A stretch of 64,000 nucleotides of DNA from a bacterium. GTDB lineage: Bacteria > UBA8248. Both the position numbers and the translations under genes were made by a program. Below are positions 28,895 to 37,567 of this stretch, piece after piece; positions within the stretch are counted from its first letter, which is position 1; each line of letters starts with the position of its first letter. The notes beneath the pieces were generated by a model that saw only the letters and a list, made by a program, of their open reading frames with translations, was not told where the DNA came from and did not search any database. The DNA lies in contig OZ253442.1 in the NCBI GenBank assembly GCA_965261085.1, forward strand, positions 736,001 to 800,000, read 5' to 3'.

Positions 28895-29332
28895 ATGCCG
28901 AAAGTGGATCACCTGGGTTACGCCGTGAGCAATCTGGATGAGAAGAAGAACGTGATGGAGGATTTGCTGGGTTTCCGGTTTCTGGAGAGGAAGGTGTATG
29001 AGCGGCCCGGCAACACCGCCCGCCTCGATTTCTACGAGGCCGAAGGCGCCGTGATGGAATTGGTGGAGGCGAGCAATCCCGATGCGCCGCTCAATCGGTT
29101 CATCGCCGCACGCGGCGAGGGGCTGCACCACATCTGCTTCGTCGTCGAGGATTTAAGAGCCACGATGGCCGAATGGGAAGCCAAGGGGGTGGAGTTCACC
29201 CTCGCGCCCACCTATGGTTCGCGCGGCGGCGTCATCGCCTTCACGAACGCCGCCACCACGGGCGGCCTCGCGATAGAGCTGGTGCAGTACGTCCCCGAGG
29301 GGGAGGAAATACCCGACTGGGCGCAGAAGTAG
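28895..29332 (+). CDS. VOC family protein (methylmalonyl-CoA epimerase-like)
   Basis: DHLGYAV, MELVE, GEGLHHICF.V and IELVQ motifs. Confidence 0.88.
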   Translation: MPKVDHLGYAVSNLDEKKNVMEDLLGFRFLERKVYERPGNTARLDFYEAEGAVMELVEASNPDAPLNRFIAARGEGLHHICFVVEDLRATMAEWEAKGVEFTLAPTYGSRGGVIAFTNAATTGGLAIELVQYVPEGEEIPDWAQK

Positions 29333-29860
29333 GGGAGCGTCTTTCATAAAGGCGGGCCTTGCGTGCGAGGCGAAACCGGATGCCGGGTGGTTCTACCGGA
29401 AAATGATGCGTGGATTCGATAAAGAGGGGAGGTGGTGTTTCCCGGTTTATTCGTATCCTCATGTGATGAAGAGTGTGTCCGTAAAGAAACGGTGAAGCCC
29501 CGCTAAAGAAATTGTAAAGCTTGTTCAAAAACACCTTTTTACGCTTGACAAGTCAGGTTCAATCCCCCACTATTTTACCCGGCATACAATCCATGTGTGG
29601 TCGGTTTCACGGGCTGCCCGTTGAATACAAGACGACTCTTCCCGAGAGTTGAAATAGGCGGGAACCCACTTTTCTTCCAAATCGTGGATTGTATGCCAAC
29701 CAGCCCGGACTTTGTCCGCAGGCTCGAATGAATCAATCCGCGTGTGGAATTGGGAGGATTGTATGGGTCATGCGGCTTCATGATGAGTGCAACCATCTAA
29801 AATTATAAAAGCGGCTTTTTGTTTATGAAATTGATGTCAGGAGTGCATTTTAGGAGATAA

Positions 29861-29874
29861 TGACCGTTTGGTCA
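29861..29874. promoter_or_regulatory. palindromic operator-like site TGACC-N4-GGTCA
   Basis: TGACCgtttGGTCA next to a GATAAT -10-like hexamer, about 95 bp upstream of the structured repeats. Confidence 0.4.
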
Positions 29875-29968
29875 AATGGGGGAATCAGTTGTTGCGGTGG
29901 AAGCGCCGCCGCTTGCGGGACGAGCTTCAAGAGCGTGTTCGGAACGAACAGGAGAAGACGGAGTATTT

Positions 29969-30066
29969 GGGGGTTACTCATTAACCGCTTGACCTCGTGG
30001 AGTCGCACTTCATTTCTTGTCGGATGGAATTCTTAGGCATGGAATGGAAAGTAATGAGTAACCCCC
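29969..30066 (+). ncRNA. structured repeat unit 1 (candidate ncRNA or mini mobile element)
   Basis: GGGGGTTACTCATTA (29969-29983) and TAATGAGTAACCCCC (30052-30066) enclose two hairpins. Confidence 0.5.
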
Positions 30067-30148
30067 TTCCTGTTCCGGCGCCGAGGCGGTGGACGGAGGG
30101 TGATTTTTCAAGGCGCATTCAGGGCGCGCAGGCGAAGAAGAAGAATCT

Positions 30149-30248
30149 GGGGGTTACTCATTAGCTGCTTGACCTCGTGGAGTAGCAAGTACCATTCCCT
30201 GTTCGAGTTGGGTCCTCTGGCGGGGAGTGGGAATAATGAGTAACCCCC
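30149..30248 (+). ncRNA. structured repeat unit 2 (candidate ncRNA or mini mobile element)
   Basis: Same 15-bp IR (30149-30163 and 30234-30248), same GCTTGACCTCGTGGAGT core, different long hairpin. Confidence 0.5.
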
Positions 30249-30635
30249 TCCTTCATCTTTCGGCGATGCGCGAGCGAGATTCAATGCGAAGCTGCGGAAA
30301 AGTTCCGACGGTTTTTTCATCAAGAGAAGCCATTCCGCGCTCCGGCCTCATCTTCTTTACCATTGCAGGTTTCGTACCTTCGATGTTAGCCGTTTTCGCG
30401 GTGGTCGGCAACAGGCCCGCTATCGGGTTCTCGCTCGATGTGAATGTTGGACGGCGTCCGCCCGGGTTTCATGTGGATTACTGTGCGGTTTGTTTCCATG
30501 GTGGCCGGCCATGGATAATGGATGGCTGCGTTCGGGGAGGATGATGATATAATTGCGAGGAAATGCAGCAGTTTCCCGAACAGCATGAAACAAGGATTTT
30601 TTCTCGAAAATAGAAATCCACGTAGGAGACCGGGA

Positions 30636-30941
30636 ATGACATGCTATCGTGTGGAAATCAAAATGAAGGTTCCCATCCTGGTGGAAAAGGATGCACCGGG
30701 ATACGTTTCGCATTGTCCACCCCTTGATATCTTCAGCCAGGGAAAAACTAAAAAAGAAGCCAAGGAAAACCTCATTGAAGCGATGCAGTTGTTCATCGAA
30801 TCCTGCTTCGAACGCGGCACGTTGGATTCTGTTCTCAAAGGTTGCGGGCTTGCTCGTGATGGTGAAAAAATCCCTATAAGGAAAGATGTCGATTCAACGT
30901 ATATCAACCTTCCCTTGGTAGCTTCCGTCGGTAGTGAATAA
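30636..30941 (+). CDS. hicB: HicB family antitoxin
   Basis: YVSHCPPLDIFSQGKTKKEAKENLIEA motif; AGGAGA RBS. Confidence 0.85.
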   Translation: MTCYRVEIKMKVPILVEKDAPGYVSHCPPLDIFSQGKTKKEAKENLIEAMQLFIESCFERGTLDSVLKGCGLARDGEKIPIRKDVDSTYINLPLVASVGSE

Positions 30942-31164
30942 ACTTTCTCCCGTTGATTGGCGCAAACTCGTCAGGATTTTCGAAGCCGTGGGTTTCAGAA
31001 TAGACCGCCAGCGCGGTTCGCATATCGTCATGGTGAAAGACGGCGTGAATAGGCCAGTTGTAATTCCCAGAGTGAATGATGTGAAGGTGGGAGTTATCAG
31101 GGCCAATTTGAGGACGGCGCGAATCACGCTGGAAAAATACTTTGAATTGCTGGAGAAAGCGTAG
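30934..31164 (+). CDS. hicA: HicA family mRNA interferase
   Basis: GFRIDRQRGSHIVM..RPVVIP motif; overlaps hicB. Confidence 0.9.
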   Translation: MNKLSPVDWRKLVRIFEAVGFRIDRQRGSHIVMVKDGVNRPVVIPRVNDVKVGVIRANLRTARITLEKYFELLEKA

Positions 31165-36045: not shown

Positions 36046-37567
36046 GGGGTTGTTGAAAAACCCCTGACTCTATGCTTGGATGTATGGATATTACGCGCCC
36101 GAGAAGGGAATATCCGCGATGTTGGGACGCAAGAACCGCGCCCAGATGGATTTGTTCATCACCGGTTCGCTGGAGAGGTTGATTCCCGAGGATCACATAT
36201 TGGCCCGCGTGAACCGCGTTCTGGACCTGAGTTGGCTGCGCGAGGAAGTGGCGGATTGTTATTGCGCGGACAACGGCCGTCCTGGGATCGACCCCGAAGT
36301 GGCGGTTCGGTTGATGTTGGCGGGCCTTCTGCTGGGGTTCGTGCACGACCGTCGGTTGATGCGCGAGGCGCAGGTGAACATCGCGATCCGGTGGTTCATC
36401 GGTTACGGGCTGGAGGATCGGCTGCCGGATCATTCGAGCCTGACGCGGATACGGCAGCGCTGGGGGGAGGCCCGGTTCCGGGAGATATTCCGCCGCACGG
36501 TCCGTGCGTGCCTGGATGCGAAGGTGGCCAAGGCCGAAGTCGTGCACGTGGACGCCTCATTGATCCGCGCGGACGTGAGTTGGGAGAGTCTGGTGGAGCG
36601 TCACGTGGACGAGGTGATAGCGGAGAACCCCGTCGAGGAGGAGGCCGGGAAGAAGGGTGGAGGAGGCCGCCGTGGCGGGGGTTCCGGGAAGGTGAGCCGG
36701 ACGGACCCGGACGCGCGGCTGGCGAGAACGGGCGGGGGATTCGAGCCGAGCTACAAGCAGCACGCTGTGGTGGACGACACGCGCGGGGTGGTGCTCGACG
36801 TATCGGTGACGGAGGGTACGGTGAACGAGCGTGAGGTGCTCGAATCGCAGGTGGAAGCGGTATGCGAGGTATCGGGGCGCGCGCCCGCGATGGTGACGGC
36901 GGACTCTGGCTACGCCTACTCGAAGGTCTACGCGGCCCTGGAGCGCCGGGGTGTGGCCGCGCTCATTCCGGCGAAGAGGGAACCCTCGCAGAGCCGTGTT
37001 CCGTTGCGCCTGTTCCGCTACGACGCGCGGCACGACATCGTGAAGTGTCCGCGCGGCAAGATACTGAGCCCCCGTCGGCCCGCAAAGGGGGGGCGTTATT
37101 ATCGTTCGAAGACCCGTGATTGCGCGGGCTGCGCGCTTCGCGAGGATTGCCTGCCGAAGGCGTGGTCGAGCAAGGTGGTGTTGGTTCCGCATGCGTATCC
37201 GGCGCTGTTGCGCGCGCGCCGGCGCCATGCGCGATGGAGGGAGGAGGAGCGGCGGATGTACCGGCGTCATATGTGGCGCTCGGAGGGCTACCACGGCGAG
37301 GCGAAGACCTGGCACGGGCTTGCGCGCGCGGTGCGGCGCGGTCTTGAGAACATGAAGATACAGTCCTACCTGACGGCGGCGGCGATCAACCTCAAGCGGC
37401 TCTCCGCCGCACTTGCTGCAAGGTTATTCGCCCTCTGGAGGGCCTGGTCGGCCCGGGAAGAGCCTCTGTGCGTCCATCGCGGCCTCGCAAGCTGCGCGGG
37501 CTTCCTGTCCGCCGCCGCGTGACCCTCCATACCGCCCGCTCCCGAAACCGGGTTATTCAACAACCCC
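36046..37567 (+). mobile_element. IS1182-family element, copy 1 (1522 bp)
   Basis: Terminal IRs GGGGTTGTTGAAAAACCC and GGGTTATTCAACAACCCC; TCCTC direct repeat on both flanks. Confidence 0.93.
36080..37522 (+). CDS. IS1182-family DDE transposase (start probably ATG 36119)
   Basis: NGRPGIDP, LPDHSSL, HVDAS, ADSGY, Cys cluster, AINLKRL. Confidence 0.93.
   Translation: MYGYYAPEKGISAMLGRKNRAQMDLFITGSLERLIPEDHILARVNRVLDLSWLREEVADCYCADNGRPGIDPEVAVRLMLAGLLLGFVHDRRLMREAQVNIAIRWFIGYGLEDRLPDHSSLTRIRQRWGEARFREIFRRTVRACLDAKVAKAEVVHVDASLIRADVSWESLVERHVDEVIAENPVEEEAGKKGGGGRRGGGSGKVSRTDPDARLARTGGGFEPSYKQHAVVDDTRGVVLDVSVTEGTVNEREVLESQVEAVCEVSGRAPAMVTADSGYAYSKVYAALERRGVAALIPAKREPSQSRVPLRLFRYDARHDIVKCPRGKILSPRRPAKGGRYYRSKTRDCAGCALREDCLPKAWSSKVVLVPHAYPALLRARRRHARWREEERRMYRRHMWRSEGYHGEAKTWHGLARAVRRGLENMKIQSYLTAAAINLKRLSAALAARLFALWRAWSAREEPLCVHRGLASCAGFLSAAA

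Follow-up and report, generated by a model that had tools for sequence, protein, structure and literature searches.

A family of structured RNA modules, probably of lipoprotein-gene 3' untranslated regions, with a tandem pair at a locus without a coding sequence in Nitrospinota

The window, that is, the whole stretch of DNA analysed here, comprises 64,000 nucleotides (positions 736,001 to 800,000 of contig OZ253442.1, assembly GCA_965261085.1) of a 4.27-Mb Nitrospinota genome. Its + strand carries two ~100-nt units in tandem, unit A (29969-30066) and unit B (30149-30248), each predicted to fold into a three-way junction made up of a closing helix (P1) and two hairpins, one short (H1) and one long (H2). 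With a probability of about 0.66, a figure that covers identity and not function, the units are orphan copies, without a coding sequence (CDS), of a sense-strand RNA module of lipoprotein-gene 3' untranslated regions (3'UTRs). The locus consists of the 5' leader of this gene family, two 3' modules and a terminator-like site, and holds no CDS. Its features are given below, with bit scores from the covariance model R1, which was built from alignment A2 of 34 distinct units.

29545-29573, + strand: promoter-like site (-35 TTGACA at 29545-29550, 17 nt, weak -10 CACTAT), missed by the consensus scan
29578-29735, + strand: structured 5' leader RNA with no CDS behind it; closing helix of 29581-29593 with 29685-29697
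29926-29968, + strand: flank of unit A, likely C-terminal coding remnant ..SVFGTNRRR.. followed by a purine-rich tract
29969-30066, + strand: unit A (type A), P1 of 15 bp, H1, long variable H2; 70.5 bits on the + strand, 32.1 on the - strand
30106-30148, + strand: flank of unit B, likely C-terminal coding remnant ..QGAFRARRRR.. followed by a purine-rich tract
30149-30248, + strand: unit B (type B), 15-bp P1 extending imperfectly to 26 bp, H1, H2 with GAG-UUGGGUC-CUC at its apex; 111.3 bits on the + strand, 32.6 on the - strand
30295-30320, + strand: intrinsic-terminator-like hairpin and T run, from the consensus scan

The two units share a direct repeat of 75 nt with 80% identity and a start-to-start spacing of 180. 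Both are bounded by the same perfect 15-nt inverted repeat, GGGGGTTACTCATTA/TAATGAGTAACCCCC, the arms of which occupy 29969-29983 and 30052-30066 in unit A (68 nt between them) and 30149-30163 and 30234-30248 in unit B (70 nt between them, with arm pairing extending to 26 nt at 85%). The initial annotation, made from the sequence without database searches, had placed two such units 180 bp apart with a homologous upstream flank of ~40 nt, and both were recovered, the flank in the repeat analysis. Folding of the + strand yielded the three-way junction that had been proposed, at -40.1 kcal/mol for unit A (z -5.0) and -57.6 kcal/mol for unit B (z -8.2), values equalled by none of 200 shuffles in either case; the - strand folded clearly more poorly (-28.2, z -2.8, and -41.9, z -4.8, respectively). 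The presumed conserved core, GCTTGACCTCGTGGAGT, occurs exactly twice in the genome, once per unit. It is indeed common to both window units, but it corresponds to the loop and 3' strand of H1 and differs in types C and D of the family described below.

Searching Rfam 15 revealed no family match over the units. The sole match at E<=10 was a 10.9-bit partial RNase P at 30231-30261 (-), for which the gathering score is 84, and the entire window gave no match at gathering score. ARAGORN predicted no tRNA or tmRNA gene in 29000-31000. Three further candidates were rejected. A small peptide ending ..LGVTH* and running into both 5' arms has no ATG, is not among the open reading frames (ORFs) of at least 40 aa and has an upstream stop in a third copy of the unit. 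A hammerhead or other ribozyme and a tRNA-like T-loop were dismissed with junction strands (..AAGUA.. / ..GAAU..) unlike the hammerhead core and with the empty Rfam and ARAGORN results. Kissing of the H1 and H2 loops was discarded, the 4-bp match being confined to type B and not preserved in types C and D.

A third copy with identical arms was found in the same genome (G000:C1:2084749-2084853), and the arm pattern was present in 16 of the 22 other genomes of the genus. When one genome per species (~185,000 species) was scanned, 28 loci with this pattern were returned; the informatively titled ones were Nitrospinota or Nitrospinaceae metagenome-assembled genomes, and one odd contig was labelled Povalibacter. 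Model R1 detected the family in 16 of the 22 other genus genomes and in none of the 28 other Nitrospinota genomes searched, and revealed diverged copies with different arms, e.g. GGGGGUUGCCCGUU.../...AACGGGCAACCCCU. The search of this genome and its relatives that the initial annotation had recommended thus gave, by R1, five sites in the genome itself and up to 16 in one relative (G013). In a metagenome collection, five of the 12 pattern matches were true members in the same contexts and seven were non-members, as was the match L076 from the genome-contig scan. In the genomes searched, this structured RNA family does not extend beyond a single genus of Nitrospinota. Literature searches on Nitrospinota lipoproteins and sponges and on structured noncoding RNA of Nitrospinae returned no description of the RNA. 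With neither a Rfam match nor a literature description, the family is regarded as undescribed, in line with the first assessment of the units as an undescribed noncoding RNA; RNA-library contigs cover both of them. In kind it is a structured cis element of bacterial UTRs, possibly with a free-standing derivative.

Conservation of the structure was assessed in alignment A3, which comprises 68 R1 hits (59 distinct) and was fitted to the model structure. In this alignment 93.3% of cells were paired and 26 of the 37 pairs showed changes on both sides. Double-change cells numbered 239 as compared with 78.7 +/- 7.8 in shuffles (none of 500 reached 239) and at most 40 when the partners were slid by 1-3 columns. 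In P1, 9 of the 15 pairs covaried when diverged copies were included, and H2 of unit A was preserved among orthologues through compensatory changes. An alignment made with MAFFT only was 93.1% paired and contained 87 double-change cells against 25.5 +/- 4.6 in shuffles. Across the family alignment 241 G:U cells stood against 25 A·C cells, and the P1 rows contained 60 G:U cells and 6 unpaired ones. Sense-strand R1 scores ranged from 46 to 112 bits; where the antisense strand scored at all, it reached 17-38 bits. Because of the G:U excess and the higher sense scores, the sense (+, coding) strand is considered the folded one. The long hairpin whose sequence varies while its pairing persists, the G:U pairs favouring the + strand and the conservation of structure on a + strand RNA had all been proposed beforehand together with a covariation test, and all were borne out. 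The resulting architecture consists of P1 of 14-15 bp, a short H1 and a long H2 with the apical loop UUGRGUC. Sequence conservation extends to some unpaired parts, with ..UCGU.. found in the H1 loop, GUACC ahead of H2, UUGRGUC at the H2 tip and GGGAA preceding the 3' strand of P1.

Inspection of the genes next to other copies, which had also been recommended with RT (reverse transcriptase), transposase and toxin genes in mind, revealed surface-lipoprotein genes. Outside the window locus, 23 of the 28 copies examined lie 13-407 nt downstream of paralogous surface-lipoprotein genes on the same strand, and for this reason the unit is taken as a 3'UTR module. In loci L128-L134, a same-strand ORF with a lipobox ends 13-407 nt upstream of 11 of 14 copies; in genome G013, a lipobox ORF ends 67-95 nt upstream of 12 of 14 copies. 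Of the other five copies, three retain a C-terminal coding remnant and two are preceded by nothing recognisable. The G013 3'UTR (~330 nt) is conserved as a whole and comprises a small hairpin, a purine-rich tract, the module, a second structured stretch and an intrinsic terminator. Within it the module is the best-conserved part, with a mean pairwise identity of 0.88-0.98 versus roughly 0.25-0.8 in neighbouring coding-end and 3'UTR bins. The module therefore shows the position between stop codon and terminator, the strand of the gene and the structure conserved at the RNA level that characterize a cis-acting 3'UTR element.

The products of the lipoprotein genes begin with ..LAGCGGGGGG.. and end with ..GAFGA(N/H)(K/R)(Q)*. 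Sequence searches of Pfam, NCBIfam and the PDB with these proteins returned nothing usable. An AlphaFold model had a mean predicted local distance difference test (pLDDT) score of 61.9, with the C-terminal barrel mostly at 70-90. Foldseek comparison of this model revealed that all listed matches at E <= 0.001 were HpuA, TbpB, NHBA, fHbp or LbpB, at low TM-scores (0.15-0.22 on the query, up to 0.57 on the target), and an Atlas lead pointed to PF01298. On the strength of the Foldseek matches and this lead, the modelled family is assigned with moderate confidence to TbpB/HpuA-like surface lipoproteins. Within the genus, the RNA and the protein family occurred together in 14 genomes; neither was found in 5, the RNA alone in 2 and the protein alone in 1.

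Two arrangements of these genes were recorded in passing. In the two-gene lipoprotein operon of the genome under study (G000:C1:1668809-1672512), the C-termini ..FIGAFGANR* and ..ILGAFGSWKAE* are out of frame with the long ORFs; these frameshifts reflect either pseudogenes or long-read assembly errors. Locus L134 (G011:C1:2609000-2620000) contains two inverted 616-aa lipoprotein genes with like printed N- and C-terminal residues, each followed by a 3' module and together flanking an orphan module that retains a ..SAFGARKQ* remnant. Either an inverted duplication or a segment capable of inversion could account for this layout.

Alternatively, the module could act as DNA, in the form of a cruciform or single-stranded hairpin serving recombination or gene conversion at the 3' end of lipoprotein cassettes and thereby variation of the family. 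The surface-protein genes that carry the module at their 3' end form a large and variable paralogous family, different genes carry identical modules (L131:13832 and L132:16299), G011 holds the duplication of the 616-aa gene around an orphan unit, and truncated 3' ends with modules resemble silent cassettes. The structured 3' end of each 'cassette', the gene orientation, the conserved ends and the variable middle are also reminiscent of integron attC sites. However, the asymmetry of 241 G:U to 25 A·C cells favours a coding-strand RNA, as a double-stranded cruciform would show none, although G·T pairs on one strand are possible. In contrast to attC, the arms lack RYYYAAC/GTTRRRY (GTTACTC and GTTGCCC are found instead), the copies are dispersed over the chromosome rather than gathered in one array, and it is the coding strand that folds, with many G:U pairs. 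No integron-type integrase exceeded the cut-off in the genome (best TIGR02249 score 84 bits versus 265), no recombinase recurred beside the copies in the loci examined, and homology between paralogues spans the whole transcription unit and not the module alone. A DNA-level signal is hence considered very improbable.

The perfect arms and variable interiors of the window units, the presence of up to 16 sites in one genome (G013), and unrelated contigs (L076, L151 and L153) holding ~100-nt units with similar GGGG... arms would also be compatible with non-autonomous elements of the type of MITEs (miniature inverted-repeat transposable elements), the 15-bp arms being terminal inverted repeats. The initial annotation had considered this reading, including an IS4-like element delimited by TAATG..CATTA. 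The flanks ..ATTT|unit|TTCC.. and ..ATCT|unit|TCCT.. contain no direct repeat, which agrees with its own remark that target duplications are absent. The other copies occupy a fixed position and orientation downstream of a single gene family and travel with whole gene units, and the A-B locus is orthologous across species and not polymorphic. Differences between arms are compensatory or G:U, the 60 G:U versus 6 unpaired P1 cells being the clearest sign of this bias. In the loci read, a search that was not exhaustive, no transposase was bounded by the arms, and the IS1182/IS5-like and IS1595-like transposases near some copies are likewise unbounded by them. No match was obtained in 2.9 million viral contigs. 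The TAATG..CATTA segment turned out to be merely the spacer between two adjacent hairpins. A derivative of a HUH element or a REP-associated tyrosine transposase (RAYT), also proposed, found no counterpart, with no match to the Y1/HUH transposase (PF01797) in the genome (96% complete), while the control was positive in 6 of 14 reference genomes. Taken together, a MITE-like nature is extremely improbable. An insertion sequence (IS) with a 480-aa DDE transposase (DUF772 / DDE_Tnp_1_6) is present at window positions 36080-37522 and at G000:C1:2088309-2089751, the printed residues of the two copies being alike. The first is 6 kb away from the tandem pair, the second 3.5 kb from the third unit copy; as the unit arms do not bound them, this proximity is probably coincidental.

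Repetitive extragenic palindromic (REP) and enterobacterial repetitive intergenic consensus (ERIC) sequences occur as transcribed 3'UTR stem-loops. Like REP elements and the bacterial interspersed mosaic elements (BIMEs) that they form, ERIC sequences and Correia elements (CREE), the module is short, multi-copy, closed by inverted repeats and located downstream of genes with which it would be co-transcribed, and its long basal helix is a potential RNase substrate or shield. According to PMC2649163, CREE of Neisseria can serve as binding sites for RNase III and can undergo cleavage or protection by this enzyme. Unlike REP, ERIC and CREE, the module family has few copies (5 in this genome, up to 16 elsewhere) and is attached to one gene family in one orientation; moreover, it has a three-way junction, conserved loops, strong covariation, no target duplications, a non-random spread and no mobility that could be seen.

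The inverted repeats around one short and one long hairpin superficially recall the msr-msd region of retrons, and the hicBA toxin-antitoxin pair lies 388 nt downstream of the tandem units in this genome. Retron templates and repeated antitoxin RNAs had consequently both been put forward. As had been remarked, the window contains no RT: the sole RVT_1 matches of the genome, at 1149855 and 1694714 (1.15 and 1.69 Mb), fall outside 736001-800000. One is the RT of a group II intron and the other a group-II-like RT with a fused RNase H; both are group-II-like by TIGR04416 and GIIM matches, with retron models far below their cut-offs, and the nearer of them is ~26 kb from any copy. Thus, unlike retron msr-msd, the copies have no adjacent RT and are placed in lipoprotein-gene 3'UTRs. 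A diversity-generating retroelement (DGR) target structure was likewise rejected, no DGR-type RT being among the RT matches. The hicBA pair was correctly located by the initial annotation, hicB starting ~388 nt past unit B and the HicA Pfam match covering 30934-31164. Of 16 other loci, however, only 2 gave tblastn matches to hicB and/or hicA, with a weak HicA-like piece in addition, and hicBA is therefore a variable insertion and not a partner of the RNA. Neither a retron template nor an RNA tied to hicBA retains practically any credibility. The hicB-like gene and hicA (Pfam HicA_toxin, 5.8e-14) occupy window positions 30636-31164, between unit B and a dehydrogenase gene. The second RT (L136:1291-3039, G000:C1:1694504-1696252) is an unusual fusion of 582 aa, with a group-II-like RT/maturase and a C-terminal RNase H (RNase_H 1.1e-22).

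The window locus is syntenic in 16 other genomes, where it lies between a glyoxalase-fold gene and a 2-hydroxyacid dehydrogenase gene and contains 1 to 3 units. At its 5' end, the TTGACA block is nearly invariant in 17 aligned locus sequences (the window and the 16 others), and TTGACA is kept at the same distance in 20 paralogous leaders. The site is absent from the consensus promoter scan because its -10 element is weak; a promoter function of 29545-29573 is suggested by the sequence. The leader that follows is almost invariant over ~190 nt in the 17 sequences, is 80-96% identical to its orthologues over 312-421 nt and is considered non-coding since 1-nt indels occur among them; a 73-aa ORF on the - strand (29575-29796) was rejected on the same 1-nt indels. 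RNAalifold of 20 leader sequences predicted 31 pairs, of which 14 had changed on both sides. The helix that closes the fold pairs GGCAUACAAUCCA with UGGAUUGUAUGCC, the conserved core is ..CGGGCUGCCCGCUGAAUACAAGACG..GGAAUAGGCGGGAACCC.., and pairing with CGGGCUG would be possible for a downstream CAGCCCGG. Searching Rfam with the leader gave no match, and it looks like an undescribed structured RNA of riboswitch-like appearance. Paralogues of the leader are present in the same genome at G000:C1:1672938-1673044, 257243-257306, 803941-804040 and 4008319-4008438. Three of these four extra matches are upstream of lipoprotein operons and the fourth is upstream of a gene read as a sugar transferase. 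The leader also occurs in G007, a genome without the 3' module. A conserved palindrome, TGACC-N4-GGTCA (..ATGACCGTTTGGTCAAAT..), was noted at 29847-29880, between the leader and unit A. On the - strand it has a promoter-like reading, TTGACC-17-TAAAAT, and it may serve either for protein binding or as a promoter of antisense transcription.

In several orthologues the flanks of the units translate to ..GAGFEGAFGAHKRK* or ..GASFEGAFGAHRRR*, resembling the family C-termini ..FIGAFGAHR*. At the nucleotide level the test for the unit A flank was weak (local score 23 versus 17.8 +/- 2.2 in shuffles, maximum 27). The unit B flank had its best local match, GGCGCATTCAGGGCGCGCAGG, to the C-terminal codons upstream of the type D copy of the same genome, with a score of 22 that is alone not significant (shuffles 18.1 +/- 2.6). 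The ~40-nt homologous flank is probably a decayed lipoprotein C-terminal coding end. Downstream, the hairpin and T run at 30295-30320 are probably the 3' end of a leader-A-B transcript. In four RNA-library runs from three studies, contigs ended at 30322-30358, a weak hint as contigs do not mark true RNA ends. The contigs over the locus span 29698-30357, 29957-30358, 30153-30326 and 30135-30322, those over the leader 29622-29786 and 29641-29708, and none covers 29585-29621 or 30362-30500. A near-identical stretch of the locus was assembled from one RNA run labelled sponge metagenome.

The remnants of C-terminal codons ahead of the units could mean that the pair is a non-functional relic of decayed lipoprotein genes, the hairpins of which persist by chance or gene conversion. 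This would fit the differing unit number among species (1 to 3), the fact that H2 of type A is the most divergent part, and the near identity of paralogues within a genome, which is compatible with gene conversion. However, 16 other genomes keep the locus in the same position, and within the orphan copies themselves P1 does not vary while substitutions in H2 are compensatory. In addition, the leader has hardly changed over its ~190 nt, and RNA-library contigs cover the locus. We consider a mere relic distinctly improbable. Instead, a former lipoprotein transcription unit seems to have dropped its CDS at the window locus while retaining the promoter, the structured leader, C-terminal codon remnants, two 3' modules and the terminator, and selection would maintain this CDS-less locus across the genus. 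Elsewhere, the module would be transcribed within the 3'UTR of TbpB/HpuA-like genes, between stop codon and intrinsic terminator.

Several observations weigh against this assignment of the units to lipoprotein-gene 3'UTRs. Copies L133:8755 and L131:1749 have no lipoprotein remnant at all, and genes of the family at 67276-68685 and 2085967 of the same genome are not accompanied by a module listed by R1. The vestigial coding end in the window is not significant at the nucleotide level. The RNA-library contigs carry neither strand nor true ends and may include DNA carry-over. Alignment A3 was fitted to the structure and its genomes are close kin, so that the shuffle counts overstate independence. 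The identical P1 sequence of types A, B and C across species exceeds what a mere stability hairpin needs, and the P1 flank duplex reached -13.3 kcal/mol as compared with -11.0 +/- 4.2 kcal/mol in shuffled flanks (67 copies).

As for function, given this identity, the module may determine what becomes of the mRNA 3' end, as a barrier to exonucleases, as a processing site specific for double strands, or as both. This role, somewhat short of an even chance, is proposed because purine-rich 5' and pyrimidine-rich 3' flanks prolong P1, and some type D copies have a 9-bp P1 extension past a 1-nt bulge. The flank extension is barely above composition, however, which leaves an RNase III-type basal helix a weak idea. 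Since loops and junction are conserved in sequence, the module could in addition be a binding platform: these parts would offer a specific factor a recognition site, possibly co-regulating the paralogues, and the orphan pair may represent this binding or processing module in free form. The genome contained no match to the Ro/Rsr protein with TROVE domain (PF05731), the partner of Y RNA, although the control was positive in Deinococcus and Bacteroides.

Small RNAs derived from 3'UTRs of enterobacteria (e.g. CpxQ and SroC) act by short seed pairing with Hfq and end at the terminator of the mRNA. Like them, the module is a structured RNA between stop codon and terminator that is possibly released by processing; unlike them, it lies inside the 3'UTR, has a long closing helix of its own and recurs across a family of paralogous genes.

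A more far-reaching interpretation would make leader, unit A and unit B a stand-alone regulatory RNA, in which the leader controls transcription of the modules and these serve in trans as decoys for a factor binding the lipoprotein mRNAs, by analogy to EutX/Rli55. According to a passage of PMC5821096, EutX/Rli55 is a riboswitch-controlled non-coding transcript with a regulatory leader followed by a copy of the RNA site found on the regulated mRNAs, and this offers a precedent. The leader-A-B locus shares this layout, the analogy being functional only; unlike the ANTAR dual hairpins of EutX, the decoy sites would here be 3'UTR modules, and ligand, protein and switch are putative. Consistent with such a role are the synteny of the CDS-less locus in 16 other genomes, a leader identity (80-96%) at least matching that of the flanking protein genes (~82-92%, one near-identical relative aside), the covariation of the leader fold (14 of 31 pairs changed on both sides), and the paralogy of both leader and modules to cis elements of lipoprotein operons. 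One RNA-library contig spans the leader through both units (29698-30357), and the unit number of 1 to 3 could reflect the dose of decoy sites. On the other hand, any terminator/antiterminator alternative within the leader is hypothetical, a contig that joins the parts falls short of proving one transcript, and a module acting only in cis together with a slowly decaying relic fits the same data. A stand-alone decoy RNA is thus unlikely, and the full proposal of a regulatory RNA gene that arose from an mRNA by loss of the CDS, with a riboswitch-like leader gating two decoy modules that titrate a putative module-binding factor, is doubtful to a slightly greater degree. Were the leader-gated decoy true, a signal would be coupled to the whole surface-lipoprotein repertoire of Nitrospinota from sponge-metagenome samples through a EutX-like circuit of UTR parts, and a second, independent EutX-type circuit would have come to light.

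Assigned to lipoprotein-gene 3'UTRs, the module constitutes a new family of structured RNAs, for which the comparative support is unusually clear and which is linked to a large, expanding lipoprotein family in uncultivated Nitrospinota. To our knowledge, bacterial 3'UTR structures that are conserved and mark an entire family of paralogous genes have rarely been described. Taken with the 5' leader, which is equally conserved, the 3' modules suggest that the cell-surface repertoire is co-regulated post-transcriptionally, and the CDS-less locus would exemplify the natural conversion of an mRNA into a non-coding RNA. Practical value is limited by the one-genus distribution and the lack of a cultivated host.

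Finally, the unrelated units with GGGG... arms were compared with the family. At L076:2290-2625, L151:401-492 and L153:401-516, ~100-nt units are closed by very long perfect helices beginning GGGG.... L076 is a gammaproteobacterial contig with lpdA upstream, whose tandem pair has 15-bp perfect stem extensions and a ..CGUGAAU.. loop in the first hairpin; the L151 unit follows the end of a clpB-like gene. The interiors of all three are unlike the Nitrospinota family (R1 28-32 bits), and a wider class of GGGG-armed ~100-nt units may exist.

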